Positions 1,429 to 61,280 of a DNA stretch of 64,000 nucleotides are shown piece by piece (within the stretch, counting starts at the first letter, position 1; the number at the start of each line of letters is the position of its first letter). The notes under the pieces are model-generated. The model worked only from the letters and a program-made list of their open reading frames with translations, was not told the DNA's origin and ran no database searches. Where the stretch lies: the IMG/VR virus record IMGVR_UViG_2617270923_000003, positions 1-64,000 of that record. The stretch is one strand, 5' to 3'. The translations under genes were made by a program, and so were the position numbers. The DNA comes from a virus.

Positions 1429-1456
1429 TAAGTAAGTCATTACTTACGTTATAGCG
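1429..1456 (-). promoter_or_regulatory. promoter/operator cassette copy (TAAGTAAgtcaTTACTTA + TTATAGCG on the plus strand; CGCTATAA-palindrome-RBS in gene direction)
   Basis: The 7-bp inverted repeat lies 17 nt upstream of the ATG at 1412. The CTATAA -10-like box lies 2 nt upstream of the palindrome. A GC box (GCGC) lies ~17 bp further upstream. Confidence 0.5.
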
Positions 1457-1492
1457 CGAACTAAATCGGAGCGCGCAAGGTAGTGAGCGGAA

Positions 1493-1841
1493 TCAGTAGT
1501 CGTGCGCGTAGAACACCGAGAGAACCCGGATCGTTACGTTGGGATCCTCCGGGTGCTCCGACAGACTTTCCTCGTCCAGGGCGTAATAGTCGATCTTGAA
1601 CATGAACCGCTCACCTGCGGTCTCGAATGTCCCGCAATCGTGTTCGCCGTGCGGGTCGTTGTCCGGATTGAAGTTGTTGAAGCTCTGGAGCGCGGCGATA
1701 ACCAACGCCATTTTCAATCCATCATCGACTTCGTTCACCAGATCGCCAGTGATGATCACTTTACCATTCCGCGAACGGCCGGCGATCCTCAGCTCGTCGT
1801 TCAGGGCCGCGATGCGGGCCTTCTTTTTGTCGTCTGTCACC
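1493..1841 (-). CDS. hypothetical protein; likely GTG start (VTDDKKK...) overlapping the upstream stop, RBS GGAGGA
   Basis: The long ORF 1493..1981 overlaps ORF 1837..2142. A GTGA stop/start overlap with GGAGGA 8 nt upstream gives a consistent coupled start. Confidence 0.4.
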
Positions 1842-3460: not shown

Positions 3461-3474
3461 TATTCGAGCCTCCT

Positions 3475-3502
3475 AAGTAATTGCTTACTTAATTTATAGC
3501 GC
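3475..3502 (-). promoter_or_regulatory. promoter/operator cassette copy (TAAGTAAttgcTTACTTA..TTATAGCG)
   Basis: Same architecture upstream of the 3134..3460 gene. Confidence 0.5.
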
Positions 3503-3521
3503 AAAAGTTTGAGGAAGCGCA

Positions 3522-3830
3522 TCAGGTTGCGCGCGAACCATCTTCTTCCCTCTTCGCAACCCAGGCTGCGAAGGCATTGTCGGTGTCCGGCCCTGCATAC
3601 TGCACTGCCTTCTGAACGCCGGCCATCAGCGCCGAGCGTTCATTCTCCGGGTAGTCGGACAGGTTCTTGACGGGGCAGGGATCCTCGGGGTGGAGCTTGG
3701 CCCACTGCTTGCGCATCTCGGCCAGGAAGCCAGCGGCTGCAAATTCGAGCCGCTGTCTGTTGGTCACGTTCACGGGACGGGTCACTTTCTTTTGATCAGT
3801 GCCGCACCTTGCTGGCCGTAAGGGTCGCAA
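3522..3830 (-). CDS. hypothetical protein (102 aa)
   Basis: ORF; overlaps the next ORF by 35 nt. Confidence 0.4.
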   Translation of the reverse strand: MRPLRPARCGTDQKKVTRPVNVTNRQRLEFAAAGFLAEMRKQWAKLHPEDPCPVKNLSDYPENERSALMAGVQKAVQYAGPDTDNAFAAWVAKREEDGSRAT

Positions 3831-7405: not shown

Positions 7406-7432
7406 TAAGTAACGACTTACTTATATCGCTAC
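7406..7432 (-). promoter_or_regulatory. promoter/operator cassette copy (TAAGTAAcgacTTACTTA..TATCGCT variant)
   Basis: Upstream of the micro-ORF/SPFH operon; followed by the CAGGTAGTGAGCGG upstream box. Confidence 0.45.
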
Positions 7433-7463
7433 ACAGTTTGGAGTGCTGCAGGTAGTGAGCGGC

Positions 7464-10162: not shown

Positions 10163-10226
10163 TAAGTAATTGCTTACTTATGTTATAGCGTGAAGAAAAA
10201 GGGAGCGCTGCGGATGATGAGCGCTC
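10163..10226 (-). promoter_or_regulatory. promoter/operator cassette copy plus 9-bp inverted repeat GGGAGCGCT...AGCGCTCCC in the upstream box
   Basis: TAAGTAAttgcTTACTTAtgTTATAGCG at 10163-10190; perfect GC-rich inverted repeat at 10199-10226. Confidence 0.5.
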
Positions 10227-13602: not shown

Positions 13603-13631
13603 TAAGTAATTACTTACTTAGCTTTATAGCG
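13603..13631 (-). promoter_or_regulatory. promoter/operator cassette copy (TAAGTAAttacTTACTTA..TTTATAGCG)
   Basis: Upstream of the 13230..13586 gene. A 9-bp hairpin at 13660-13690 upstream of it may terminate the preceding operon. Confidence 0.5.
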
Positions 13632-13714
13632 GTGGCATCGACGGGGTGCATCAAGTCGTGAGCGGACGGCGATAACAGGAAACTCGCCGTCCGTTACCTA
13701 CGCAGTTAGTCGGG

Positions 13715-16437: not shown

Positions 16438-16466
16438 TTAAGTAAACGCTTACTTAACTTATAGAT
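16438..16466 (-). promoter_or_regulatory. promoter/operator cassette copy (TAAGTAAacgcTTACTTA..TTATAGAT)
   Basis: Upstream of the 16171..16422 gene. Confidence 0.45.
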
Positions 16467-17160
16467 CAAGCGAAGACGGAAGTGCGTGGAAATTCGACCG
16501 GCGACGAATGGCGTCTTCGTATTCCATCAAGAAGAATTCCTTCGCGGCGTAGGCGTCGAGCATCTGAATCTCATAGGGCGCGACGTGCTTGTCGTCGTGC
16601 ATCTTACCGGACTGCCATTCTTCATCAGGATGCTTCGGGACGATCTGCTCGGCCTCGGCTGCGCAAACGGCTTCGTCAGCCATCTTCACTTCTTTGGGCA
16701 GCGGAAAGATCAGGCCGAAGCGATCGGCGAACGCTTTCTCCCAGCTATCTTCCAGCGGCTTGATGACCGGGTGAATGCGCGGGTCGTGCTTGAGCGGGCG
16801 GATCATGTCGCCGGTCACGTATTCGGGACCGTCGTGCAGCAGCGCTTCCAGCTCCAGGTCAGGACGCTTGAGAACGTCGCGGATATAGCGGGCGCAGTAA
16901 ACGGAATGTTCCGCAACCGAGTAGCTGATCCGCGTCTTGAAACGCTTGTGCTGGGTGGCGCCATTCCAGCGATTGTTCGTCGCCAAGTGGTGCGCAACCA
17001 CGTTGATGTTGATCTCCTCTCCACGCGGGTCGAACGGGTAAATCTTCCGGCCGTTCGCGGAGTGCATATACTGACCGCGCACCGGCTGACCGTTAGTGAG
17101 GGCGGGAGCCGGCGTCGGGGTCATGATGTTGGTGTGGTGATGAACGATTGTCATGAACAA
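16459..17160 (-). CDS. HD-domain phosphohydrolase (YfbR/5'-nucleotidase-like)
   Basis: H...HS (VAEHS) and LLHD motifs, spaced as in HD phosphohydrolases. Confidence 0.6.
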   Translation of the reverse strand: MFMTIVHHHTNIMTPTPAPALTNGQPVRGQYMHSANGRKIYPFDPRGEEININVVAHHLATNNRWNGATQHKRFKTRISYSVAEHSVYCARYIRDVLKRPDLELEALLHDGPEYVTGDMIRPLKHDPRIHPVIKPLEDSWEKAFADRFGLIFPLPKEVKMADEAVCAAEAEQIVPKHPDEEWQSGKMHDDKHVAPYEIQMLDAYAAKEFFLMEYEDAIRRRSNFHALPSSLDL

Positions 17161-17172
17161 CCTTTTCAGGTG

Positions 17173-17203
17173 TGAGTAAGTAAGTTCTTACTGATTTTAT
17201 AGC
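17173..17203 (-). promoter_or_regulatory. promoter/operator cassette copy (GAGTAAGTAAgttcTTACTgat..TTTATAGCG)
   Basis: Upstream of the HD phosphohydrolase gene. Confidence 0.45.
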
Positions 17204-17253
17204 GCGCAATGCGACGGAGAACATCACATTGCGCACGGGTTATTCGAGTGGGA

Positions 17254-18822
17254 TCAGCCGTTCGGCTTCAAGCCACGAGCGTCGAACAGCTTCTTGAGGG
17301 TCTTGCGGCAAATATGCAGCTCAGCCTCGATCTGACGGTTCGACTTGCCTTCGGCGTGCAGCACCAGGGCGAGGGTATGCTTTTCGGGCAGTTCCTTCTC
17401 GGCCTTGGCCTTTTCGACGACCTTCTTCGACTTCTCGACCTTCTCAGGCGTCGGCTTGGCAGTTCCCTTGCCGATCTTTGACTCAGGGGAGCTCACAGGC
17501 TCGCTCGGAGCAGTCATTGCAGCGCTGATAGCGGCCGAGAGATCGCCGCTCGCAGCGGCCTTCTGAACGGCCTTGCTCGGCTTCTTCTGACGCGACAGTT
17601 CGACCTCATCCACGCGCTTGCGCAGATCGCGGATCGACACGTCGACCTTCTCCTCGATCACCTCGGGGCGATCATCGAGCGCCTTGGCAACGCCGGAGGT
17701 TCCGACATCGGCACGCGCCATCTTCTTCGCACCTTCGACCGGCGTGACGGTGACGTTTCCACCGTAGGCCGAGCCGATGTTGACGATCTCAAGGATCGAC
17801 GTGTGATTGCCCTTGATCACGTCCGCGAGCAGCTTGGATGCCTTCTCGTGTCCGGTCATCGGCTTGTTGCTGCGCAGCGTCGGGTGAACGTCAGCCGGCA
17901 GGACCGCGACGATGTGATAGCCCTTGGCGCGCATCTTGTTCGGCTCGCCGGGCGGCACAGCGATCACGTCTTCCGGCGCGACCTTGACCAGGGTGATGAT
18001 ATCGCCACTGAAGCCGGAGAGGTAGCCGCGCCGTGCGATATGCAAGCCCGTCGAGCATTCGTTGCGCCGGTTCGGGTCGACCAGCTTCTCGTCCATCTGC
18101 ACGAAGGAGCCGAGCTTCTGCGTCACCTTGCGCGAATGGCAATCGACGAAGCCGTTGGACGTGGACTGCAGCACCTTGTAGGCGACGATCGAGCCGTCAT
18201 CCGCGATCGGCAGGTCGCCCTTGCTCATGAAGTTGAGCAGCTCCTTGATAGTATGCGAGCGGCTGTCGATCACAGAGGCGATGCGCTCCATGAACTTCTG
18301 GAAGCCTGCGGCGTCCTCGCCGTGATTGATCGCATCCATGTAGGGCGTCAGCGCCTCGACACCAGGGATGACCTTGTTGTTGACGACGGCGTGCAGTTCT
18401 TCCGGCTCATATTCGACAGCCGGACCCTTGTCCTGCGGAACGTAGCGCGACGACACCGACGGCTTCGTCAGCTCCATGACCGGCGTGGGAGCCGGCGTCG
18501 GCTTGACGCTGCCCAGAACGACAGTCGTGGTCTTGGGCTCCGGCTCGCTCGGCGTGCCGCCCAGCAATGCCTTGAGCTGGGAGAAGCGGCCGCGCACGAA
18601 CCTCACGACGCCGTTGGTCTTCTCCTCGATAGTCTTCTCGATGGAGAAGGTCGCGAGGTCGATTTCCATGTGCTCGCCGCGCTTGAGAGCTTCGACCGTC
18701 TGATCGAGGATCTCCTTCGTGCGCTTGGTGTCCTTCTTGAGGTTTAGTTCCTCCCCGTTGTCGAGGAAGAGGGTAACGCCGGAATTAGATGCGATGGCGC
18801 TGAGGATCTTTACCTTGCTCAT
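17254..18822 (-). CDS. rIIB: rIIB-like protein with a C-terminal HTH-like segment
   Basis: Lies immediately downstream of the rIIA-like gene with an ATGA overlap. AAGGAGG RBS precedes the MSKVK start at 18822. Size and position match T4 rIIB. The C-terminus (LALVLHAEGKSNRQIEAELHICRKTLKK) resembles a LuxR/sigma-70 region-4 HTH. Confidence 0.55.
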   Translation of the reverse strand: MSKVKILSAIASNSGVTLFLDNGEELNLKKDTKRTKEILDQTVEALKRGEHMEIDLATFSIEKTIEEKTNGVVRFVRGRFSQLKALLGGTPSEPEPKTTTVVLGSVKPTPAPTPVMELTKPSVSSRYVPQDKGPAVEYEPEELHAVVNNKVIPGVEALTPYMDAINHGEDAAGFQKFMERIASVIDSRSHTIKELLNFMSKGDLPIADDGSIVAYKVLQSTSNGFVDCHSRKVTQKLGSFVQMDEKLVDPNRRNECSTGLHIARRGYLSGFSGDIITLVKVAPEDVIAVPPGEPNKMRAKGYHIVAVLPADVHPTLRSNKPMTGHEKASKLLADVIKGNHTSILEIVNIGSAYGGNVTVTPVEGAKKMARADVGTSGVAKALDDRPEVIEEKVDVSIRDLRKRVDEVELSRQKKPSKAVQKAAASGDLSAAISAAMTAPSEPVSSPESKIGKGTAKPTPEKVEKSKKVVEKAKAEKELPEKHTLALVLHAEGKSNRQIEAELHICRKTLKKLFDARGLKPNG

Positions 18823-21191
18823 GCTGCCTCCTTGAGGGCGGTGGTGTTGGTGTTGGCTGCGGACTTCTTGGCGGACTTCTGCTTGGCGCGGCGCTGCAGG
18901 AACTTGATCGTTTCGATCAGATCGTCGGTGAACTGATCGCCCCACTCGGACACCCGCTCATTGAGGAACCAGGCGCCGCAGATCGGATTGAGGTAGCGGA
19001 AGTGATCCTCGGCCTTGGAGATGCTCAGCGGCTTGAAGGTCTTGCCGCACGCCTTCTTGAGGCCGTCCTTAGCCTGGGTGACGATGGTCTTGGTCTCGTC
19101 CGACATGGACTCAGCGCTGGAGAGGAAGTCCCAGATCAGCTTTGCTTCCTGATGCAGCTCGCCGGGATTTGCCCGGTCGGGGAACAGGAGCTTGGCAATC
19201 CGGGGTTCCTTCTTAGCCAGCTTGAGCGCAGCCTCGACGGTCGAGGCGTGATAGGCGCTGCTACCATCGCGGATGAAACGGTCGTGCCGGATGGTCTCGC
19301 CGTAGACGACCTCGCGCTTCTTGGTGAGTTCGACCAGGCGGGCAGCCAAGACCTCGTGCAGGTTGCGGCAGCCGGCCTTCTTGAGCTTCTCCTCCTGGCC
19401 CTTCGTCGTGATGAGCGCGGTCTTCGGATAGAGCTTCATGATCTGGGCGCGGTATGCCTCGTTGAACGGCATCCGGGCGATCTCGTCGCGCTGCCAGGTC
19501 ATCATGTAGAAGGACGGATCCTCGCAGGACGCCGGATGGTCACGGTCGCGGCTCTTGTCGCTGATGTCTTCCAGGATGAAATACTTGTCGGCGCTGGTCT
19601 TGCGCACGGCAGGCTTGCGATTTGCCTTGGCCTCCTCGTAATCGAACAGCTCCAAGCTGATCTTGAAGTGGCCGCACAGTTCCTGCAGACGCTTGAGGTT
19701 CTTCTCGGTCCACTGGCGCATGACCATGCCGGGCACGTAGGTATTCTTGTCGTGGCCGTAGAACTCGCGACCCTTGAGCGCGAGCATCGGGCGCAAGTCG
19801 CGCATGTTGCGGGCAACGCACAGCACCGGATAGACGTGCCCCGAGCGTTCGTATTCGCCGATCCGCTTGGTCTTCGGTCCCGGATAGTCGTGGCGATGCC
19901 TGTAAATGTCGAACAGCATCAGCTCCTTGAGCAGGCCCATCTTCGACGCGATGCGCAGTGCCGCCGTAGAGGTGCGCTTGAAGTGCAGCTCCTTCGCATT
20001 GCCGAAGTTCTGCGGAGCGCGCCGGTAGAACCGGCGATCGTCGCGGAACATCTTCTGGGCGATCTTGTAGAGCTTGCGGCGCGTGTCGATGCCGATCCAA
20101 ACGTGGTGATGACCGTGCGTGGAGACCGCGTGGTCGGCGATCATATCGGGCGTCGACAGGATTCCTGCCGGGTAGTCGCTGCGCGGGCTGATATAGTCGT
20201 CCAACTGCAGACGGCTGCGGCTCTCAACGATCGAGGTGAGCAACCGCATGGTAGCGGGATCCAGCGCCCGCGTGATCGTCTTGATCGCCTTGTTGAGCAG
20301 GCGGTTCAACGTCTCGTCGGTGAGCGGCGAGAACGACAGCGCTTCACGCGACGGCGTGACGCCGATCGAGTTCGGAGGCGGGATCAGCACCAGGATCGAG
20401 TTCGTGCCACAAAGATTGATCGCCTCGACGGCGAGCCGGGTCATGGCGTCGTCAGTGTTGGTCAGCGGATACATGACCGTGCCGTAGAGGACGTAGACGC
20501 GGCCTTCGTTGAGCCCGATGTTCGGGATGACGCCGAACTCGTGCTTACGGGCCTCGGTGAAGTCGAAGCGCTCAAGCGGCACGCCGTTCAAGGTAGCAAG
20601 CATTCCGCCCTGCTTGACGACAGCGCGAATGTGGTTTTCGAACTCGTAGCGGTCCTTGGGCTGCTGGATCGGGATCGTGACCGTCAGACCGGTTTCGGTC
20701 GAAGCGGTGCGGAACATCTCGCGCATTTCCGGCTTGCCGTCGGTCGCGACACCACCACGGGAGATCGCATGGACGGTCTTGAGGCCGTCGTGCTGGTTGA
20801 CGATGGTGAAGTGGTCCGTCACGGCGAAAGGCGCCTTGGATCCGAGGCCGAAGCCGCCCGTCTGGTTCTCGTCCTTGACCTTGGTGGACTTGCCGTAGAT
20901 GCAATAGATCGGGTGCAGCAGCTCCAGCGGAATGCCAGGCCCGAAGTCGCGGATCTTGATCTCGGTTTCAGTGACCGTGATTTCGACCGGAACGTCGGTC
21001 TTGCCGACCATAATGTGTGCATCCCAGGCGTTGCAGATGGTCTCTCGCATCGCCGCGCGCTTCTTGTCGCGGTAAATCTTGTCGGAGAGGAGGGCATAGA
21101 GCTCAGCGGAGTCGTCCATGCCGAAGGCTTTGGCCTCGCCACCGCCGATGACGGCATGTGTGTCGAGTTCTGCGATCGTTGAAACCTGCAT
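18819..21191 (-). CDS. rIIA: rIIA-like protein (N-terminal GHKL/HATPase_c domain)
   Basis: 790 aa. N-terminal Bergerat ATPase motifs (E..NAWDA, DFGPGI, GGFGLGSKAPFAV), as in T4 rIIA. Confidence 0.7.
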   Translation of the reverse strand: MQVSTIAELDTHAVIGGGEAKAFGMDDSAELYALLSDKIYRDKKRAAMRETICNAWDAHIMVGKTDVPVEITVTETEIKIRDFGPGIPLELLHPIYCIYGKSTKVKDENQTGGFGLGSKAPFAVTDHFTIVNQHDGLKTVHAISRGGVATDGKPEMREMFRTASTETGLTVTIPIQQPKDRYEFENHIRAVVKQGGMLATLNGVPLERFDFTEARKHEFGVIPNIGLNEGRVYVLYGTVMYPLTNTDDAMTRLAVEAINLCGTNSILVLIPPPNSIGVTPSREALSFSPLTDETLNRLLNKAIKTITRALDPATMRLLTSIVESRSRLQLDDYISPRSDYPAGILSTPDMIADHAVSTHGHHHVWIGIDTRRKLYKIAQKMFRDDRRFYRRAPQNFGNAKELHFKRTSTAALRIASKMGLLKELMLFDIYRHRHDYPGPKTKRIGEYERSGHVYPVLCVARNMRDLRPMLALKGREFYGHDKNTYVPGMVMRQWTEKNLKRLQELCGHFKISLELFDYEEAKANRKPAVRKTSADKYFILEDISDKSRDRDHPASCEDPSFYMMTWQRDEIARMPFNEAYRAQIMKLYPKTALITTKGQEEKLKKAGCRNLHEVLAARLVELTKKREVVYGETIRHDRFIRDGSSAYHASTVEAALKLAKKEPRIAKLLFPDRANPGELHQEAKLIWDFLSSAESMSDETKTIVTQAKDGLKKACGKTFKPLSISKAEDHFRYLNPICGAWFLNERVSEWGDQFTDDLIETIKFLQRRAKQKSAKKSAANTNTTALKEAA

Positions 21192-21206: not shown

Positions 21207-21237
21207 TATGTAATTGCTTACTTATCTCGTTATAGCG
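21207..21237 (-). promoter_or_regulatory. promoter/operator cassette copy (TATGTAAttgcTTACTTA...TTATAGCG)
   Basis: Upstream of rIIA and downstream of the tRNA island. Confidence 0.45.
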
Positions 21238-21277
21238 AATGACGCGTTGGAGTGCGTCAGGTGACGAGTGGATAATC

Positions 21278-21354
21278 TGGTTGGGGATTAGAGGAGTCGA
21301 ACCTCAACCTTGTCTGACTCGTCAGCCAGTTGCTCTGCCCTGAGCTAATCCCCA
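21278..21354 (-). tRNA. tRNA-like gene with a normal acceptor stem, D-arm and T-arm (GGTTCGACTCC) and encoded CCA, but an aberrant anticodon arm
   Basis: rc sequence TGGGGAT-TA-GCTC-AGGGCA-GAGC-A-ACTGGCTGACGAGTCAGAC-AAGG-TGAGG-TTCGACT-CCTCT-ATCCCCA-A-CCA. The anticodon region is the palindrome CTGAC-GA-GTCAG, so a 5-bp stem with a 7-nt loop cannot form. Confidence 0.4.
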
Positions 21355-21370
21355 ACATGGACACGATTTG

Positions 21371-21647
21371 ACGAAGGGTGCCTCTTAGTTCCGGGATCGA
21401 ACCGGCACACCCGTTTGTAACTGGCCTCGGACGGAGCAGGGAGCGCTGCTGTGGTCGCGATTGCTCTCGTCTAACCGCGCCGCCGAAGATGCACCAGCGT
21501 CCGATTATGCCTCGTCAATTCGAGGATTATTCCCCTAAGCCGGCCTTGTCGGCACTTGCGTAACTCCAACCCGTAAAGGTCTTGCGGAGAATGCGGGGAT
21601 GCCTGGGCTAAATCTACCTCCCAGGCTGAATCGGAGCACCCTTCGTC
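21371..21647 (-). ncRNA. ~277-nt structured RNA element closed by a 12-bp long-range helix, with a tRNA T-arm-like hairpin (CCGG-TTCGATC-CCGG) near its 3' end
   Basis: 21371-21382 (acgaagggtgc..) is the reverse complement of 21635-21646. Internal perfect hairpins include GCCTGGG/CCCAGGC, CCTCG-AATTGA-CGAGG and GAGCA...TGCTC. The element sits between two tRNA genes. Confidence 0.3.
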
Positions 21648-21654
21648 AAAAAGA

Positions 21655-21727
21655 TGGCCGGGAGGCAAGGAGTCGAACCTCGACCGCTGCCCTCCATAGG
21701 CAGTGCTCTGCCCTAAGCTACCTCCCG
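21655..21727 (-). tRNA. tRNA with anticodon UGG (Pro) and an unusual A33; encoded CCA
   Basis: rc sequence CGGGAGG-TA-GCTT-AGGGCA-GAGC-A-CTGCC-TATGGAG-GGCAG-CGGT-CGAGG-TTCGACT-CCTTG-CCTCCCG-G-CCA. Cloverleaf is clean; the anticodon loop is UAUGGAG. Confidence 0.55.
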
Positions 21728-21980
21728 GTATTTATGGTGGTGATGAGCTCCTATACCCCTCTGGCCGACTGCCAGTGATATCCGCGGTGTCAATCGCGGC
21801 CAGGGCTCCTAAGAGCTCATCACCGAAACGTTTCCCCGTTCATCCGGCCTATCAGATGGCTACTTTCGCAGCGTCCACGATCTACCCAGCGCTAGACTCA
21901 GGCGGTGGCGGGGCTTGCCTTGCGGAGCGGTGTTCAGACTCCACAAGTTCGGCGCACTTCGTTGCCCATTCGGGCGAAAC

Positions 21981-22068
21981 TGGAGATCCGGGTCGGATTC
22001 GAACCGACGAGTCCAAGAAAGGAACGGGATTTGCAGTCCCGCGCGTTCGACCACTTCGCTACCGGATC
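21981..22068 (-). tRNA. type-II (long variable arm) tRNA with anticodon GCA (Cys codons) and U73 discriminator; encoded CCA
   Basis: rc sequence GATCCGG-TA-GCG-AAGTGGTCGAA-CGC-G-CGGGA-CTGCAAA-TCCCG-TTCCTTTCTTGGACTC-GTCGG-TTCGAAT-CCGAC-CCGGATC-T-CCA. It has a 3-bp D-stem with an 11-nt D-loop and a 16-nt variable arm, as in Ser/Leu/Tyr tRNAs. The anticodon is that of Cys. Confidence 0.6.
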
Positions 22069-22298
22069 GGATGGGCTGGGACGCCAGCGACTAGGCACTG
22101 GTCTGGACCGCGGCTCCACCCTACTACCTGGGACGCTAACGCGCGCCAGGCCGTCCCAACTCGTTGAATTAACGTCCCTGGGAGTAGAAAGGACGAAACA
22201 CCTCCCAGGGACTCGCCGGGTCGCTACTCCGGTGAACAGGCGATAGGCGTGGGTTATGACGCCTCGTTTTAAGTCGCCGCTTGCGCGGCTTGATTAGC

Positions 22299-22367
22299 AT
22301 CGGGAGCGTGGAGTCGAACCACGACCGCGGATTTCAAGCCCGCCGCACTGCCCTGTGCTACTCCCGC
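22299..22367 (-). tRNA. short type-I tRNA with anticodon UGA (would read UCA Ser codons), G1-A72 mismatch, no encoded CCA
   Basis: rc sequence GCGGGAG-TA-GCAC-AGGGCA-GTGC-G-GCGGG-CTTGAAA-TCCGC-GGT-CGTGG-TTCGACT-CCACG-CTCCCGA-T. 69 nt with a 3-nt variable loop. Confidence 0.5.
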
Positions 22368-22528
22368 ATATCGACCCTAATCAGTTCTCGCTCTGCTGAT
22401 TACCCGATGCGTTCGGGACCGTCTGGGCAAAGGTGGAGCCCGATGCTGTCGAGGCGGCTTCAATGATCGGCCACACACCGGGCTCCTAGACGCCAACCCG
22501 ACGGCTGTCGGCGTCTATTCGTCAACCC

Positions 22529-23002: not shown

Positions 23003-23128
23003 GGGTAGTTCCTTTCGGTTGCGGATCAGATCAAATTCAGCGTCAAGCACCCGACAAAGATGATGGAGGCAGCGCAGACGAGGTGTGCGAAACTAATGCT
23101 CATCTGCGCTGTCTTTCGTTCGTTGTCA

Positions 23129-23160
23129 GTATGTGCTTACTTACATTTCTACTTATAGCG
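23129..23160 (-). promoter_or_regulatory. promoter/operator cassette copy (ATGTGCTTACTTACAT...CTTATAGCG)
   Basis: Upstream of the 22529..23002 gene and a possible 25-aa hydrophobic micro-ORF. Confidence 0.4.
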
Positions 23161-23260
23161 ATGCGCTCATCGGAGCGCATCAGGTTGTGAGCGGAAAGTC
23201 GTTGCAAAGATAGAAAACAATAATATCGTAGACCGCATTCAGTAATTTTCGGGGGAAATC

Positions 23261-26637: not shown

Positions 26638-26665
26638 TGAGTAAGTGCTTACTTAACTTATAGCG
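26638..26665 (-). promoter_or_regulatory. promoter/operator cassette copy (TGAGTAAgtgcTTACTTAacTTATAGCG)
   Basis: Upstream of the 26211..26627 gene. Confidence 0.5.
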
Positions 26666-26716
26666 TGAACGAATTGGAACTGCGCATTTTGTTCTCGGCG
26701 GCAGTGTTTTTTTATT

Positions 26717-30598: not shown

Positions 30599-30654
30599 GG
30601 TTATTCTCGTCGGTTGGGAATGGTTGAACCCGACGCTAGGTCGGGCTCACATCA

Positions 30655-30700
30655 TAAGTAAGTAAGCCCTTACTTACTAGACTTGACAAATAAAAAGGTG
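30655..30700 (-). promoter_or_regulatory. palindrome copy (ATAAGTAAGTAAgcccTTACTTAC) followed by TTGACA...TAAAAA instead of the TTATAGCG box; upstream of nrdB
   Basis: Differs from the common cassette: a sigma-70-like -35 TTGACA lies beside the palindrome. Confidence 0.4.
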
Positions 30701-32069: not shown

Positions 32070-32083
32070 CGCTTTCTCCTTCT

Positions 32084-32110
32084 AAGTAAGTGCTTACTTA
32101 ATATATAGCG
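32084..32110 (-). promoter_or_regulatory. promoter/operator cassette copy (TAAGTAAgtgcTTACTTAatatATAGCG)
   Basis: Upstream of the 31599..32069 gene. Confidence 0.5.
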
Positions 32111-32145
32111 CTTTCTTCTGGGGAACGCACAAAATATTGTGTTGG

Positions 32146-36540: not shown

Positions 36541-36574
36541 CTAAGTAATTACTTACTTACTTATTCACTTATAG
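36541..36574 (-). promoter_or_regulatory. promoter/operator cassette copy (TAAGTAAttacTTACTTACTTA..CTTATAGCG)
   Basis: Upstream of the sbcD-like gene. Confidence 0.5.
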
Positions 36575-36613
36575 CGAAACGCGCGTGGGAGTGCGTCAGG
36601 TATAGAGCGGGAC

Positions 36614-37481: not shown

Positions 37482-37548
37482 GCTCTGCCCGACTTGCTGT
37501 TCGTGTTTACAGATCACTTATAGCAAGTCGGGCGAGGGAGTGCAGGGA

Positions 37549-40786: not shown

Positions 40787-40905
40787 ATGCGTAGTTCCTT
40801 ACTGCTTTGTGCTTTGGTGCTTTCGACTTGCCTCGACAGCTATTTAGCTATCTAGCTGTTTACTTATAGCGACGTGTCGATGGGATCGCTCAAGTTCCCG
40901 ACGGA

Positions 40906-41196: not shown

Positions 41197-41225
41197 CTAA
41201 GTAAGTGCTTACTTACTTTATAGCG
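41197..41225 (-). promoter_or_regulatory. promoter/operator cassette copy (TAAGTAAgtgcTTACTTACTTTATAGCG)
   Basis: Upstream of the 40906..41169 gene. Confidence 0.5.
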
Positions 41226-41245
41226 TAAATGACGACGGATTGCAC

Positions 41246-41821
41246 TTAATTCTGAGAATTTTCTGCGGCTGCGTTTCCGGCATTCCGACGCGCCAGGCGG
41301 TCGAGGGCAATGATCTTGGACGCTTCAAGAGCATCCTCGCGGGCCGAGCGTTCGCGGATCGACAGCTCGCCCTTCATCTCCTCACGGGAGATCAGCCCCT
41401 GCTGCACGAGCATGTCACGACGATGGCGGAAAGCCTCAACTGCGGTCTTGCCAATGGACTCGATCCGCTTGGCCTCGTTGAGCGCCTTCTTCATGGAGAT
41501 GACGCGAGGATGGCGCGCGACCTTGGCCGCGATCGCGGACTCGGTGATCTTCTCGCTGGCAGCCGCAAGTTCGTTGCGAATGATCTGCTGGACGGCAGCC
41601 TCGGTATTCTCGACCAGCATCTTCACAACGTCGGTCTGCTTGGCAGCTTCCGCAGCCAGGACGCCGTAATGTGAGAACATGGATGCCTGCTGCATCATGG
41701 CGTCGGTCAGGTTGTTAGGAGAGTAGGCGAGATCGCGCCTCAATTCTGCGGCGTCAATGAAGTCGCGGACCTGGTAAACAGTCAGCTCCTTCCCTGCATC
41801 GCCAGTCGTGGGCTTGGTCAT
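41246..41821 (-). CDS. hypothetical protein (191 aa)
   Basis: ORF; helical; no family recognised. Confidence 0.5.
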   Translation of the reverse strand: MTKPTTGDAGKELTVYQVRDFIDAAELRRDLAYSPNNLTDAMMQQASMFSHYGVLAAEAAKQTDVVKMLVENTEAAVQQIIRNELAAASEKITESAIAAKVARHPRVISMKKALNEAKRIESIGKTAVEAFRHRRDMLVQQGLISREEMKGELSIRERSAREDALEASKIIALDRLARRNAGNAAAENSQN

Positions 41822-41878
41822 GTCTGGTTTCCTTCTTTGATGCTAGAATTATAGCGATCTGACGATCGGAGCGCGCAT

Positions 41879-46672: not shown

Positions 46673-47317
46673 CTAATTCGAAATGAGCCGCCCGATCTGG
46701 GTGACTTCATCCATGATCTGCTTGCGCTCGGCCCGGCTTGCGCCCATGAAATCAAAGATCATTGCGCTGGTGATGCGGCCGGGCATTGCGTAACAAGCGC
46801 CAATTTCCTTGGCGTAGGCGGATTTCGCTTCGAGATCCTTCATACGTTCCATCAGCTCCGGCGGATTGTCCTTGAGGAAGGTCAGAAACATCTGCGACCG
46901 GGGCGACAGGCGCGTCAGAGCGTAAGCGAAGCAATCCTCACGCTGATAGGTTTCGTCCTGACGCTCGTGCGGGTCAGGAACAACGTCGCCAAGCGAGGTT
47001 GCGCCCGTATAATCTGCGTCGTCTCCCCGCAGCTTCATGTCGAGGGACGCGGCGATGGTCTCGCCATGAAAGCGCTCGAAGTTCTTCTCGACCCAGCGAT
47101 TGATGTGGTTGCGCAGACCAGCATAGAGAAAGGTCTTAAACGCGGCACCGCCGTTGTCGTCATACTTTTCGCAGGCCAGGCACCACGCTACCCAGAGCTC
47201 GCTTTCAACATCTTCGAGGGTCTGGGTCTTGGCCCCAAGCGCATGAACGCGCTTGAGCACCTTGTAAGCAAATGCCTTGATCTGCTGGCGATCGAGCTTC
47301 GGGTCACGCTTGATCAT
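46673..47317 (-). CDS. sigma-70 family (ECF-like) sigma factor
   Basis: Region-2-like segment (AFAYKVLKR...ELWVAWCLACEKYD...FKTFLYAGLRNHINRW) and a C-terminal region-4-like HTH. Confidence 0.55.
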   Translation of the reverse strand: MIKRDPKLDRQQIKAFAYKVLKRVHALGAKTQTLEDVESELWVAWCLACEKYDDNGGAAFKTFLYAGLRNHINRWVEKNFERFHGETIAASLDMKLRGDDADYTGATSLGDVVPDPHERQDETYQREDCFAYALTRLSPRSQMFLTFLKDNPPELMERMKDLEAKSAYAKEIGACYAMPGRITSAMIFDFMGASRAERKQIMDEVTQIGRLISN

Positions 47318-48618: not shown

Positions 48619-48654
48619 GACTTCCCTCTTGTGTGATTAAGCGCTTTCGCGTTG

Positions 48655-48728
48655 CGCTATAAGTAATGACTTACTTATTTTTCAGATGGAGAGCAAGCGG
48701 GAAAATAAGCTCCCGCTTACTTTTTTTA
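48655..48728. promoter_or_regulatory. inverted cassette copy (CGCTATAAGTAATGACTTACTTA on the plus strand) followed by a plus-strand intrinsic-terminator-like hairpin (AAGCGGGAaaataagcTCCCGCTT + T7) between cobT-like and cobS-like genes
   Basis: Orientation is opposite to the other copies; GC stem plus T-tract at 48695-48728. Confidence 0.35.
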
Positions 48729-51086
48729 CATGCCGGTGAGAATCTTCTTGATCTCCGTCATCACCTGACCGGGGAGATCCTCGGCCTTATGGAGAACCGT
48801 CGACTTCGGGTAATACTTGGTCACAGACGAGTCCATGATACCGATCCCGATGCACTCAACGCCCAACTTGCCAAGGCTTTGCACGACACCAGAGAGGTGA
48901 GGGCCGCACTTGGCGCCGCCTGCAGGCTGCCCATCGGACAGAACCAGCATGACCTTGCGCTTTTCAGAGCGTTTAAGCAGCCGCTCGGCTGCATATTCCA
49001 GGGACTCGCCGTCGATGTTGCCATTGAGACCTGCCTGGGCATTCCTCATAAACGCGAAACGACTTTTCACGGTCGCGGTCAGGCGTTCGTCGAAGGTCTT
49101 GTAGATCGGCATAACGATCGGGATCACACGATCCCAATTGATACGCGCCTTTTTCGCATCTTCGGCCATCGCCTCGCGCAGCGACTGCGGCATTCCGTAG
49201 TAGCCACCCGTAGTGAAGCCGATAACCTCATGGGAAATCTTGACGCGGTCGAGGGTCGAGCAGAGCGCATAGCCGGCCGTCATGGCGAGCTTCATCTTCG
49301 GGCCGCCCATCGAGCCGGAGTTGTCGATGACGACCGATACGGCCGTATCCTTCGACACATGCTCCTGCTTCTGGGTGAACACGCGCGGATCGCCGCCCGG
49401 AACACGGAACAGCGATGGCGCATGAAGCTTGCCGGTGCGATGACCAGGAGTGCGGATGACGTGGGACTGAGAGGCCATCATGCGCTCGATGTCCTTCTGC
49501 ATCTTTGAGGTCATCTGCCGAGTCTCGTCTTCCATTTCCGGAACCCACTTGGAGTTCATGTTATCCGGAACCTGCACGGGCTTGATCTCGTCCATCTCGC
49601 GGGTGAAGACGAGATACTGGCGAGGGTCCATTGCCGCGACCGCCGCATCGGAAATCTTGATCGCGATCTGCGAGGACATATCGACGGCTTCGAAATCGCC
49701 GTCCTCGTAGTCGAACAGAGACTTGGCTGCAGCGTTTCCGACGCCTCCTCCTCCGCCCTGGTGCTCCTCCTCGCTGCCGTCGCCTACCTCGCCGATGCCA
49801 CCACCTTCGTCGCCGGAGGTAATGACAGACGATACCTCGTTGCGGCGACCGCCTTCGTCATCGTCACCGTCATCGCCATTGTTCGAGGATTCATCAGCGG
49901 ATGAATTGTCTTCTTCATCAGGGCCGTCCTCAGCGCCTTCGTTCCCGCTTTCGTCTCCTTCGTCCTGTGGATCTTCATCTGCGCCAGGAGCGTCATCCTC
50001 CTCTTCGCTGTCGCCCACCTCGCTCTCAGGATCAGCATCTGCGTCACCGTCGTCGCCGGCGTCATCATCGGAATCCTCTTCGCTGCCATCAGACGGATCG
50101 CCGTCGTCATCGGCGCCAGCTTCTTCCTCAGCGTCGTCTTCCTTATCCTTCTTCTCATTCTTGCCGCCCTTCGAACTATCGGGCTTGGACTTTTCATCGC
50201 CGGCTTCATCACCGTCGCCTTCGCCCTTATCGTCCTTTTTCTTCTGCTTGCCCTTGCCGGACTTGCCTTCGTTCGGCTCCGACTTCGAGTGATCGCGCTC
50301 GCCATCACCGTCACCTTCGCCAGCCTCCTTTTCGGGCTTGTCCACAGACTTGCCCTTGGATTCAGACTTATCCTTCGTCTTTGAAGGCTGGGGCGGGGGA
50401 GGCGGCAGGATCTTGCCCATCAGAATGTCATGGACCTCTTCGGCGACGACGAGCGTCTCCTTGGTGGTCGTTGCCTTCTTGAGGAGCTCAAGAGTGGCCG
50501 GCTTCATGGTCGCGAGCATTTCCTCTACAAGCGGATGCTTCCAGTAGCCGTGCTTGTCCATCCAATCCTGCATTTCTTCGTGCCCGCCAAGAGCGCGCAT
50601 CATCGGGACCATGATGTAGCGGAACTGCTCCTTGGGATCCTTGACGCCCTTGAGCGCCGCATCAGTGATCTTTTCGAGAAACCACTTGCGCGTAACCGAC
50701 AGGTTGCGAGCTGCGCCAGGGAAGGTCTTGACCTGCTCCCGTTCGATCATCACGTCTTCGATAATGTTGTGGGTGTTCATGAACGCACGACGCCTGGGAT
50801 CACGCAGGTCTCGTTCGCTCATACCGCCCTTGCCACCGTAGTAGTGCCAGTCGGTATGAAGGACGTGAGCGACCTCGTGGTCGATAAAGCCGGAAATAGC
50901 CGCGATGAACTCCGAATTTGCATTGTCCGGGATGTTCGGGATATTGACCAGAACCGGCTGCTTGGTCTTGGCATCAGTCTGGACGTAAGCCTGCGAACCG
51001 CGCTGCGTAACCATCAGGCCCTTGCCAGACAGAAGCGGCACGAGCTTGGTAATCACCTCGCGCAGTTCGATGATATCGCGGTTCAT
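48726..51086 (-). CDS. CobT-like vWA-domain protein with a ~200-aa poly-acidic tract
   Basis: vWA MIDAS motif (VIDNSGSMGG) in the C-terminal half. Central Asp/Glu/Gly/Ser low-complexity region. N-terminal CobT-like region. Confidence 0.75.
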   Translation of the reverse strand: MNRDIIELREVITKLVPLLSGKGLMVTQRGSQAYVQTDAKTKQPVLVNIPNIPDNANSEFIAAISGFIDHEVAHVLHTDWHYYGGKGGMSERDLRDPRRRAFMNTHNIIEDVMIEREQVKTFPGAARNLSVTRKWFLEKITDAALKGVKDPKEQFRYIMVPMMRALGGHEEMQDWMDKHGYWKHPLVEEMLATMKPATLELLKKATTTKETLVVAEEVHDILMGKILPPPPPQPSKTKDKSESKGKSVDKPEKEAGEGDGDGERDHSKSEPNEGKSGKGKQKKKDDKGEGDGDEAGDEKSKPDSSKGGKNEKKDKEDDAEEEAGADDDGDPSDGSEEDSDDDAGDDGDADADPESEVGDSEEEDDAPGADEDPQDEGDESGNEGAEDGPDEEDNSSADESSNNGDDGDDDEGGRRNEVSSVITSGDEGGGIGEVGDGSEEEHQGGGGGVGNAAAKSLFDYEDGDFEAVDMSSQIAIKISDAAVAAMDPRQYLVFTREMDEIKPVQVPDNMNSKWVPEMEDETRQMTSKMQKDIERMMASQSHVIRTPGHRTGKLHAPSLFRVPGGDPRVFTQKQEHVSKDTAVSVVIDNSGSMGGPKMKLAMTAGYALCSTLDRVKISHEVIGFTTGGYYGMPQSLREAMAEDAKKARINWDRVIPIVMPIYKTFDERLTATVKSRFAFMRNAQAGLNGNIDGESLEYAAERLLKRSEKRKVMLVLSDGQPAGGAKCGPHLSGVVQSLGKLGVECIGIGIMDSSVTKYYPKSTVLHKAEDLPGQVMTEIKKILTGM

Positions 51087-51132
51087 GTCGCGTCTCTCCT
51101 TGAGATAAGTATTTGATTACTTATGTTTATGC

Positions 51133-51414
51133 TCAAAATGAACGGAGCACTACAGGCTTCACTTCGAACGACAAAAGCCCCTTTGCATCGCCAATGGCTG
51201 GAATGACAACGTGAATGTTGCCGTGGATCGGATGCTTTCCGGAGTAGACGGTGCAACCGTTCATCTCCTCGACCTCGCGATTTTCGAGCTCCATAGCGAC
51301 CTCGTTGGCCTGTTCGTTCGTGAAAGACAGATTGCGGAGGAAAGGTGACTTCTCGCTCATGATGACCTCGTGTTTGGACGGTGTAAGTATGCGATTACTT
51401 ATATTCGCGGACAA
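51133..51414 (-). CDS. hypothetical protein (93 aa or shorter)
   Basis: ORF downstream of a palindrome/promoter cassette at 51392-51450. Confidence 0.4.
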   Translation of the reverse strand: MSANISNRILTPSKHEVIMSEKSPFLRNLSFTNEQANEVAMELENREVEEMNGCTVYSGKHPIHGNIHVVIPAIGDAKGLLSFEVKPVVLRSF

Positions 51415-51473: not shown

Positions 51474-51875
51474 TTACGCGTCGGGCGCGAACAGCTTCCG
51501 TAGGGCCTCTTCACGCTCCTTCGTCAAGGCGGGCGGCGTATCGCCCGCCGCTTCTCTGACGGTATTCAGTATGGCGCGCTCTTCCTTGGAGACCCCGGTC
51601 TCCATAAGCTCGGTCAGCATTCTAACCGAGGCGTCGTCGTAAAATTGGGTGAGCGCCAGTTTGAACATATCCACCGGGTCGACACCAAGGGCCTTAGACA
51701 TCGCTGGAACGCGGTCGAGAGCGAGCTTCACATGCCCAAGTTTGAGCATGGTGATCATGTTCTGGTTCTTGAAGCCGACGGCCTCCGCTATCTCTCTTTG
51801 AGACTTCGAAGACTCCATGAGCAGCTTCATAATGTAGTTGGAAAACCTCGTAGGTGTTCCTGCTTCCTTAGCCAT
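51474..51875 (-). CDS. XRE-family HTH transcriptional regulator (Cro/CI-like)
   Basis: HTH SQREIAEAVGFKNQNMITMLKLGH; AGGGGATTTGAA RBS. Diverges from the RHH-RepC operon. Confidence 0.65.
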   Translation of the reverse strand: MAKEAGTPTRFSNYIMKLLMESSKSQREIAEAVGFKNQNMITMLKLGHVKLALDRVPAMSKALGVDPVDMFKLALTQFYDDASVRMLTELMETGVSKEERAILNTVREAAGDTPPALTKEREEALRKLFAPDA

Positions 51876-51912: not shown

Positions 51913-51951
51913 GTGTCTCTCGCTTTCGACAGTTCATTTATAGCGAGACAC
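51913..51951. promoter_or_regulatory. 10-bp inverted repeat GTGTCTCGCT...AGCGAGACAC enclosing a TTATAGCG box, in the XRE / RHH divergent control region
   Basis: Perfect 10-bp arms separated by 17 bp; candidate operator. Confidence 0.4.
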
Positions 51952-52177
51952 TGATGGGATCGTTGCGGAAGTCGTTAGACCATACGAAAAAAATATGTCA
52001 ACACTTACTTATTTTCTGGACTCGGCTTGTCATCAATTCGAGTCCTCTATAAGGGCATTTCCCTGGGGCAAAAGGATCGCTGAGTTCCATAATTAAACTT
52101 ATGCGATCAATTGTGGATTCGCTGCTACTGTTGATTGTCTGGAACTTTTGGGGTTCACAAATCGAGAGAATCGGGCA

Positions 52178-56906: not shown

Positions 56907-57028
56907 AGCTTTCCTCTGCGCGACAATCGGTCTGCGACCAGTGATGCGCGTTTCTTCGTTCATGTTTGAGTTATAGCGAGATCGTCATTGGGACGCGGCA
57001 GGAAATAAGTATGTGATTACTTATCCCG

Positions 57029-59505: not shown

Positions 59506-59575
59506 TCCTAAGTAAGTGCTTACTTATATTATAAGACGCAGAGCGTCGTGTTTCGACTTATAGCGAAACGTTGAT
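59506..59575 (-). promoter_or_regulatory. tandem cassette: palindrome TAAGTAAgtgcTTACTTA + TATTATAAG, then a second CTTATAGCG box; between the 59579..60337 gene and helicase
   Basis: Two -10-like boxes 35 bp apart. Confidence 0.4.
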
Positions 59576-60337: not shown

Positions 60338-60429
60338 AGCTGGTCTTTCACTGTATCTGCTAAGACTTATAGCGAGACGCGCATGGAAGCGCAGAGAAAG
60401 CGAGCGCGGGATTTCCGCGCTCTTGGTTG

Positions 60430-61182: not shown

Positions 61183-61280
61183 TTCAGGGGACTCCAGTGG
61201 AATATTAACGGTCCCACTGTAGCGAAATTCTGAGAAATAAGTAAGTAATTACTTACATAGGCGATCAGAATTTCATGCCG

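Follow-up and report, generated by a model that had tools for sequence, protein, structure and literature searches.

What is the short palindrome that recurs throughout a 64,000-nucleotide stretch of viral DNA, so often between a promoter-like motif and the start of a gene, and does it act as DNA or as RNA? The stretch, here called the window, comprises positions 1 to 64,000 of IMG/VR virus record IMGVR_UViG_2617270923_000003. A sequence-only reading of the window had described a composite promoter/operator cassette in which an inverted repeat, TAAGTAA-N4-TTACTTA, would be either an operator or a stem-loop in the 5′ untranslated region (UTR). Our analysis favours the operator: we put at roughly 60% the probability that the palindrome is a dispersed operator of a dimeric repressor encoded by the element itself, with the XRE-family protein at positions 51474–51875 as the candidate.

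The repeated cassette proved real and its motifs are far more frequent than expected. With up to 2 mismatches allowed, the palindrome TAAGTAANNNNTTACTTA gave 23 matches at 21 distinct sites, compared with 0.02 expected from shuffles, and the octamer TTATAGCG gave 17 exact matches, compared with 0.71 expected. TTATAGCG lies on the plus strand in 16 of the 17, which is the orientation of the predominantly minus-strand genes. Taking a greedy set of open reading frames (ORFs) covering 86% of the window as the coding reference, 19 palindrome sites fall wholly outside ORFs (binomial P = 7e-15) and the other 2 lie in ORFs that are ORF-calling artefacts; the motif is thus not equally frequent inside coding regions, whereas an equal frequency there is what the sequence-only reading had named as speaking against it. 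In gene orientation each copy opens with an upstream box, after which come CGCTATAA and, past a short gap, the palindrome; a purine-rich Shine-Dalgarno (SD)-like run and ATG complete the order, and the cassette stands directly 5′ of the ribosome-binding site and ATG on the gene strand, as had been proposed. At 14 sites the start codon follows 10–28 nt after the palindrome with an SD-like run between them, the latter judged by eye and unscored. On the plus strand, positions 1429–1500 read TAAGTAAGTCATTACTTA-CG-TTATAGCG-CGAACTAAATC-GGAGCGCGCAAGGTAGTGAGCGG. The palindrome is better written TAAGTAAK-NN-MTTACTTA, an 18-bp element of 8+2+8. TAA occurs in 2 of the 3 reading frames on both strands at all sites, so that each palindrome is also a translational stop barrier between genes in either direction.

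The window can be compared with a set of relatives. Closest among sequence records are three Rhizobium siphophages, B1VFA, V1VFA-S and RHph_X66, which match part of the window with about 82–86% of nucleotides identical; RHEph10 and similar phages stand further off. The nearest plasmids are pLM21S1 (Sinorhizobium) and pRlX6 (R. beringeri), and plasmids of about 116–118 kb from Shinella, Pararhizobium and Methylobacterium also match. Window proteins are about 60–85% identical to those of B1VFA and pLM21S1 and 35–68% identical to those of RHEph10. Elements of the pLM21S1/RHEph10/B1VFA family, which have repC, parA and parB, are described in the literature as phage-plasmids (PMC12509600, PMC4447125, PMC7969092). 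Several IMG/VR contigs of about 120 kb carry the same cassette, with identity to the window reaching about 86% at most; the window is therefore a new member of this alphaproteobacterial phage-plasmid family of roughly 115–122 kb. Genome-wide, B1VFA has 39 distinct palindrome sites and pLM21S1 has 40, including sites at structural genes, where the CGCTATAA promoter is missing; together with the 21 in the window they are dispersed over early, late and partition regions.

Whether the palindrome is read as DNA or as RNA was judged from its conservation. Across 100 sites of the TAAGTAA lineage, each arm position carries 1.5–2 bits, with G/T at position 8 and C/A at position 11. Because positions 8 and 11 are conserved together, the true half-site would be TAAGTAAK with a 2-bp centre that cannot form an RNA loop. 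Half-site centres in the 8+2+8 dyad are 10 bp apart, the geometry of small helix-turn-helix (HTH) dimers. None of 43 arm pairs that deviate from the consensus stays Watson-Crick and 4 become G-T; the palindrome search rule could have detected a compensated pair. Folded as RNA, the hairpin has a stability of −3.1 kcal/mol, falling to −1.3 for the common RHEph10 form and to −1.2 for a transcript starting inside the left arm. The gap between octamer and palindrome is 2 nt in 21 of 37 cassettes (range −3 to +9), and at that spacing, with CTATAA or TATAAN as the −10, transcription would start inside the left arm.

These features bear on the possibility that the element works as RNA, either as a 5′-terminal or intercistronic hairpin (affecting mRNA stability or serving as a processing site) or as the SD-adjacent target of a global translational repressor; T4 RegA, which binds many early mRNAs, would be an analogue. 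At most sites the palindrome ends 0–10 nt before the SD, most cassettes lack a terminator, so that read-through transcripts would hold the whole palindrome, and at a spacing of 5–9 nt all of it would be transcribed. The complementary flanks that extend the capsid-gene palindrome in relatives and the orientation bias of RHEph10 sites point the same way. On the other side, the hairpin is weak, its sequence and not merely its pairing is conserved, positions 8 and 11 could not pair across a 2-nt loop, several palindromes lie between −35 and −10 upstream of any start, the left arm would be untranscribed at the modal spacing, and there is no Rfam match; an Rfam search of the window found only four tRNAs. 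We consider an RNA role distinctly improbable. The DNA operator is favoured, since deviating arm pairs are never compensated and the hairpin is weak, since the modal spacing puts the predicted start inside the left arm, since the palindrome behaves as an independent module that also occurs inside −35/−10 spacers, and since sister lineages swap in different palindromes at the same places. Of the two options offered by the sequence-only reading, the operator has thus held up better than the stem-loop, and its interpretation of a composite promoter and operator is for the most part borne out.

The position of the palindrome in relatives carries the operator reading further. The portal and minor-tail promoters of B1VFA and pLM21S1 have (C)TTGnnn-N1 followed by the 18-bp palindrome, whose last TA begins TAcaAT; in this layout the palindrome takes up the 17-bp spacer between a −35 and a −10. 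TTG and −10 are retained at the matching places of RHEph10, where they enclose a different 18-mer. Other palindromes overlap a putative −35 or sit just upstream of a second, palindrome-less promoter (61238 and 57006 in the window). By consensus, then, the palindrome appears to overlap the −10, spacer or start of core promoters, as the operator of a steric repressor would. Paired palindromes 50–52 bp apart, or about 5 helical turns, occur upstream of the capsid gene and another late gene (B1VFA, about 9108/9159 and 16298/16348; pLM21S1, about 32942/32994), a distance at which bound proteins could cooperate or loop the DNA. In the capsid pair, GGACTA...TAGTCC on either side of the downstream palindrome lengthens its dyad.

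Different lineages carry different palindromes. RHEph10 has only 3 weak TAAGTAA matches; its palindrome is TCAGTMAATATTKAYTGA, which occurs about 30 times in matching register and at comparable kinds of position, many copies having an internal A/G mismatch. The core of this palindrome, AGTAAATATTGA, is repeated in RHph_N1_10 and in the Pararhizobium plasmid. Methylobacterium plasmid pAMS5a has TCAGTCA-N4-TGACTGA directly after GCTATAAC, and the Shinella plasmid has mixed TAAGTMA sites. Changes between lineages are symmetric, position 2 changing with 17 and 6 with 13, while the promoter module is unchanged, and three operator classes are found among the family members examined. A host site of the IHF, CtrA, LexA or LuxR type was rejected: the consensus does not fit, and a host site would not differ between sister phages of related hosts.

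We aligned 37 palindrome-bearing cassettes from the window, B1VFA and pLM21S1, anchored on the octamer. Upstream conservation is confined to CCGCTCA (−34 to −28), ACCTG (−25 to −21) and GC-N-C-TCC (−18 to −12), and positions between these blocks vary among copies. The promoter can be written CCGCTCA..ACCTG..GCRCTCC-N11-CGCTATAA, with the distance from TCC to CGCTATAA fixed at 11 nt; the gap between TTATAGCG and GGAG had been given as 8–10 nt and is corrected accordingly. Because positions outside the motifs are unconserved, the copies appear to be maintained regulatory sites and not a recently spread repeat, and the same observation rules out a mobile repeat of the miniature inverted-repeat transposable element (MITE) or promoter early stem-loop (PeSL) kind. 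Rhizobial primary-sigma promoters have a −10 of TATNNT and a CTTGAC-like −35 at spacers of 16–23 nt in R. etli, and cTATat in S. meliloti (PMC4943231). The (C)TATAAN present in all cassettes agrees with this consensus, which bears out the earlier suggestion of a −10-like CTATAA. About half of the copies have a CCTGAY box 21 nt upstream that could be a lax −35. GCRCTCC, at its fixed 11 nt from the octamer, is the best conserved upstream element and is non-canonical as a −35. A scan for promoters of the Escherichia coli sigma-70 type detected none of the cassettes and is therefore unusable for placing promoters. Two other interpretations of the upstream region were discarded. The GC box is not generally a terminator hairpin, which is true of few copies (for example at 10190), and CCGCTCA and GCRCTCC are not complementary; an N4-type hairpin promoter does not suit relatives that have no annotated phage RNA polymerase.

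Could the palindrome then simply be part of this promoter, as an initiator, discriminator or holoenzyme recognition element needing no separate binding factor? Its nearly fixed distance to the −10 box in most cassettes fits such a role, as does its AT-richness in a genome of 58% G+C, which would ease strand opening. Nonetheless, promoters of the same type are conserved without the palindrome in all three genomes, the palindrome is found at the start, in the spacer or over the −35, dyad symmetry is foreign to sigma recognition elements, and sister lineages alter the palindrome symmetrically while keeping the promoter module. This explanation seems very improbable.

If a canonical cassette is taken to be intergenic, on the minus strand, and to combine the TCC box with an octamer of no more than 1 mismatch, the window holds about 22 canonical and 3–4 degenerate cassettes; the earlier figure of more than 25 copies is borderline but fair if the degenerate ones are included. 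The palindrome is present in 13 canonical and 3 degenerate cassettes, and 5 more palindromes occur in other contexts. The palindrome-bearing cassettes are as follows.

1429–1491, minus strand: full cassette, the example of the sequence-only reading; palindrome 1429–1446, octamer CGCTATAA 1449–1456, spacing 2, upstream box reaching about 1491; the ATG follows the palindrome by 16 nt.
3474–3536, minus strand: cassette; palindrome 3474–3491, octamer 3494–3501, spacing 2.
7406–7463, minus strand: cassette; palindrome 7406–7423 overlapping octamer CGATATAA 7421–7428, offset −3.
10163–10225, minus strand: cassette; palindrome 10163–10180, octamer 10183–10190; the upstream GC box is a terminator-like hairpin.
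13603–13666, minus strand: cassette; palindrome 13603–13620, octamer 13624–13631, spacing 3.
16439–16501, minus strand: cassette with a degenerate −10; palindrome 16439–16456, ATCTATAA 16459–16466.
17177–17239, minus strand: cassette; palindrome 17177–17194 (1 mismatch), octamer 17197–17204.
21207–21272, minus strand: cassette; palindrome 21207–21224 (1 mismatch), octamer 21230–21237, spacing 5.
23126–23195, minus strand: cassette; palindrome 23126–23143 (2 mismatches), octamer 23153–23160, spacing 9.
26638–26700, minus strand: cassette; palindrome 26638–26655 (1 mismatch), octamer 26658–26665.
32083–32145, minus strand: cassette; palindrome 32083–32100, octamer CGCTATAT 32103–32110.
36542–36611, minus strand: cassette; palindrome 36542–36559 with a second overlapping register at 36546–36563, octamer 36569–36576.
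41198–41260, minus strand: cassette; palindrome 41198–41215, octamer 41218–41225.
51106–51123, unstranded: variant palindrome TAAGTAATCAAATACTTA, its −10 degenerate; the cobT-like, cobS-like and sigma genes follow downstream.
51384–51401, unstranded: variant palindrome upstream of a conserved 75-aa ORF (ATG 51360), just past the terminator-like hairpin of the XRE gene.
59509–59565, minus strand: tandem promoters of a DnaB-like helicase gene; palindrome-less CGCTATAA 59558–59565, then CTTATAAT and palindrome 59509–59526.

All 16 palindrome-bearing copies listed by the sequence-only reading were recovered within 8 nt of where it had placed them, and all 6 palindrome-less copies within 13 nt; its list omitted 30659, 51994 and 57006, and gave 48660 and 61238 only as inverted copies. 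At 10191–10225 (minus strand) the upstream GC box forms a perfect 9-bp hairpin followed by a T run, TTTTTCTT, and is terminator-like, so that the promoter box there overlaps the terminator of the preceding gene. The cassette at 21207–21272 lies upstream of a 790-aa ORF (18819–21191) in a region matching RHEph10 genes annotated as rIIA/rIIB. Between this cassette and the next, at 21278–22368 (minus strand), are four tRNA genes: Pro-TGG, Cys-GCA, Ser-TGA and one of unassigned anticodon. The tRNA set differs in relatives, B1VFA having Cys, Met, Asn and a pseudo-tRNA.

The remaining palindromes stand in other contexts.

30659–30676, unstranded: palindrome without a preceding CGCTATAA, with a conserved TTGTCA on one side and a TATGAT box on the other, ahead of the gene matching ribonucleotide reductase beta.
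48660–48677, unstranded: palindrome flanked by the cobS-like gene and by the terminator-like hairpin that follows cobT.
51994–52011, unstranded: degenerate palindrome that includes TTGACA, situated between the divergent XRE and RHH-repC genes.
57006–57023, unstranded: palindrome directly after CTGACG-GGA, upstream of the palindrome-less promoter 56971–56978.
61238–61255, unstranded: palindrome ahead of phoH; a conserved GCTACAKTGGG box follows about 15 nt later.

The copies before the cobS-like gene and phoH had been described as inverted, which has no meaning for a palindrome. At the first of these, plus-strand positions 48655–48662 read CGCTATAA and overlap the palindrome; in the minus-strand orientation of the gene the palindrome comes first and is followed by TAGCG, which is not kept in B1VFA (GAGCG at that position). 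At the place matching 57006, RHEph10 has its own palindrome within TTGACG-N17-TTACAA. The TTGAC variant at 51994 is kept in B1VFA, pLM21S1 and Shinella. Two further hairpins were seen near these sites. A GC-rich one, CCCGAC-CTAGC-GTCGGG, at about 30629–30645 (minus strand), lies between palindrome 30659 and the ribonucleotide reductase beta match; it has counterparts in B1VFA and pLM21S1 and no Rfam match. The other, AGCGC-AACGCGAAA-GCGCT at 48620–48660 (minus strand), is in the cobS-like leader just past palindrome 48660 and is kept in B1VFA and pLM21S1.

A second set of promoters has no palindrome at the start site. Besides 59558–59565 above, these are:

60367–60374, minus strand: palindrome-less octamer; palindrome-less in B1VFA and pLM21S1 too.
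56971–56978, minus strand: palindrome-less octamer upstream of a WGR-domain gene.
51938–51945, minus strand: palindrome-less octamer of the XRE regulator gene.
41849–41856, minus strand: palindrome-less octamer.
40864–40871, minus strand: palindrome-less octamer, followed instead by AGCTA-type repeats at 40837–40858.
37518–37525, minus strand: palindrome-less octamer TGCTATAA upstream of an ASCH-domain gene.

All seven are palindrome-less at matching positions in B1VFA and pLM21S1. The proposal of two regulatory classes therefore stands as far as the presence or absence of the palindrome is concerned; the label constitutive for the second class is unsupported, two such promoters being paired with an operator-bearing promoter and one being followed by a different repeat. 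The latter, CAGCTATTTAGCTATCTAGCTG, consists of TAGCTA-NN-TAGCTA units at 40837–40858 directly after the promoter, and may be the site of another regulator. Similar AGCTA/ATAGCT runs occur in B1VFA and pLM21S1 at the matching place and near other promoters.

Which protein might bind the palindrome? Two encoded proteins are of particular relevance.

51474–51875, minus strand: candidate repressor, a 133-aa XRE-family protein (Pfam HTH_3).
46673–47317, minus strand: element-encoded sigma-70-family protein, only region 2 detected.

HTH_3 covers residues 15–68 of the XRE protein (E = 4e-5). The gene runs divergently to the RHH gene and repC, with a terminator-like hairpin after it, and an XRE HTH_3 protein stands beside RHH-repC in every family member examined. 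Its promoter (octamer 51938–51945) lacks a start-site palindrome in the window, B1VFA and pLM21S1, and the degenerate palindrome at 51994 is about 50 bp upstream. Homologues with 31–34% identity are found in 832 plasmid records and in SSU5-like phage-plasmids; carriers include Yersinia pestis plasmids of pMT1 size (about 96–100 kb) and Klebsiella and Escherichia elements. The homologue in Escherichia phage Cyrano carries the annotation putative master repressor, and its expression in the lysogen is 10-fold over background (PMC9928086). A search of bacterial genomes for relatives of the XRE protein gave only distant Rhodobacteraceae and other loci that lack repeated palindromes, and a sequence search against solved structures gave no match. 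In the HTH alignment the predicted recognition helix begins with N in all elements of TAAGTAA type, with Q in the RHEph10 group and with R in Methylobacterium. That this first residue tracks operator class is suggestive only, because there are three independent groups and the XRE protein is not unusually diverged.

Another protein could bind the same DNA: a backbone regulator of the ParB/KorB kind, or a temporal regulator of the lytic cycle, possibly acting with the element's sigma factor. Two ParB-like proteins and the sigma factor are encoded in relatives, and the sigma factor is encoded in the window. Promoters of early genes, late genes and the partition operon alike carry the palindrome, a spread that resembles the KorA/KorB regulon of plasmid RK2, and the rigid GCRCTCC-N11 arrangement, not being a canonical −35, makes an extra factor plausible. 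KorB sites, however, lie upstream of the −35 or at a distance and not over the start, and a site that overlaps the start or fills a 17-bp spacer is in the position of a repressor, not an activator. The half-site geometry and length fit a small HTH dimer. As for the sigma factor, which the sequence-only reading had suggested might read the cassette, only region 2 is detected and a match to the ECF superfamily model is below cut-off. Its own operon lies behind the cassette at 51106, which argues against its being required there, and the −10 looks host-type. We regard this group of explanations as unlikely. Behind the same cassette is the gene of the CobT-like protein (48726–51086, minus strand; 786 aa), whose N-terminal part and C-terminal VWA domain are separated by a long acidic insert of about 220 residues, low in complexity and enriched in D, E, G and K.

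Several observations weigh against an operator bound by the XRE protein. The link between XRE protein and operator type is confounded by phylogeny, with three independent groups only, and XRE divergence is unremarkable compared with that of other proteins. Alternative binders (the two ParB-like proteins, the RHH protein and small unannotated ORFs) are equally available. Promoters and start sites are assigned by consensus only, and strictly defined spacer-type sites are few (5, 2, 3 and 1 per genome). The capsid-gene palindrome of B1VFA and pLM21S1 lies within a longer inverted repeat that could fold as RNA, and the orientation bias of asymmetric RHEph10 sites relative to transcription could mean a strand-specific role. 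The parA-containing operon of B1VFA carries a palindrome, which fits a global silencer better than a repressor of purely lytic genes. Finally, B1VFA and RHEph10 were isolated as plaque-forming phages, and lysogeny there is presumed.

With these points in mind, the preferred reading can be set out as two modules. The first would be a family-specific promoter, GCRCTCC, a rigid 11 nt and CGCTATAA, with a host-type −10 and a non-canonical −35 region. The second, the 18-bp palindrome, would serve as operator for a dimeric repressor that the phage-plasmid itself encodes. At most window promoters the operator begins 2 nt after the −10 box and would span roughly −5 to +13, and would therefore block RNA polymerase; elsewhere in the family it would fill the −35/−10 spacer or overlap the −35. 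In the plasmid-prophage state a single repressor would thereby silence about two thirds of the window promoters and, in relatives, some 40 sites per genome. The XRE protein, whose own promoter has no start-site operator, is the most likely repressor, and lineage-specific operators would define immunity groups. The motif counts and positions, the independence of the two modules, the swapping of palindromes between lineages and the lack of compensated pairs are observed; start positions, repression, the repressor's identity and a tie to lysogeny are inferred from them.

A more far-reaching version is tentative, and we hold it to be doubtful as a whole. It would have nearly the whole genome of these alphaproteobacterial phage-plasmids of about 115–122 kb, as distant kin of SSU5, silenced by one XRE repressor at about 40 operators in three promoter architectures. 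Changes of the first helix residue (N, Q or R) together with symmetric operator changes would create the immunity groups, and GCRCTCC-N11-CGCTATAA would be a new promoter class needing an element-encoded factor.

How does this arrangement compare with known systems? The C1 repressor of P1 acts at 22 dispersed operators, asymmetric 17-mers of the form ATTGCTCTAATAAATTT (PMC8546580). Like the family described here, P1 is a plasmid prophage of about 100 kb in which one repressor serves many scattered operators at or next to promoters. In contrast, C1 is not of the XRE type, and the P1 sites are asymmetric whereas those of the present family are perfect 18-bp palindromes in about 40 copies in relatives. 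None of the searches showed the sequences to be related to P1. Cluster A mycobacteriophages such as L5 and Bxb1 have 20–30 asymmetric 13-bp sites whose lineage-specific consensus varies with the repressor and which correspond to immunity groups (PMC6550527). Dispersal and lineage-specific consensus are shared with these stoperators, which differ in being oriented with transcription, mostly off promoters, and in blocking elongation; the present sites are symmetric and on core promoters.

Plasmid RK2 has short palindromic KorA and KorB operators at many plasmid-backbone promoters, with a ParB homologue among the binders. KorB sites are 13 bp long and 12 in number, often upstream of or far from the promoter, and control no phage functions. 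Repeated palindromic operators are common to both, and ParB-like proteins are also encoded in the pLM21S1/RHEph10/B1VFA family. T4-type PeSL cassettes are short, repeated intergenic units of promoter and stem-loop before many early genes. Unlike these, the copies described here appear to be maintained sites and not the result of recent spread, and the palindrome is 3′ of the −10 and not an upstream terminator. SSU5-like phage-plasmids (about 100–110 kb) share the gene order repressor, small ORF, cobT-like, cobS-like and Pol III alpha, and this order together with the XRE homologues points to a deep relationship between rhizobial and SSU5-like phage-plasmids. The TAAGTAA-type palindrome was not found in a 40-kb stretch of Cyrano, where the most repeated motif is AATGATTCCATACA, with 5 copies, two of them forming one inverted pair. 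The repressor gene of Cyrano is divergent from the cobT-like operon, whereas the two are co-directional in the window. Compared with P1, cluster A and RK2, the distinguishing features here are a perfect palindrome, at least three arrangements on core promoters, and coupling to a family-specific promoter.

The repeat is not mentioned in the papers on B1VFA and pLM21S1 (PMC12509600, PMC4447125), and a full-text search for the motif strings returned nothing relevant. One repressor with many dispersed operators is a known principle, and the present system would be a previously undescribed example of it. Phage-plasmids are increasingly viewed as common carriers of genes between bacteria. To our knowledge, how some 100 kb of lytic genes are kept silent in the plasmid state is largely unstudied outside P1 and N15. 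For the rhizobial family our results provide a testable regulatory map, comprising the proposed operator TAAGTAAGCACTTACTTA, about 25 promoters in the window, a candidate repressor and three operator classes. The map could be used in annotating promoters in poorly annotated genomes, and the cassette as a compact repressible promoter for alphaproteobacterial genetics. The operator classes predict mutual immunity among these elements, and hence may help to predict superinfection immunity for rhizobiophages that affect legume inoculants.

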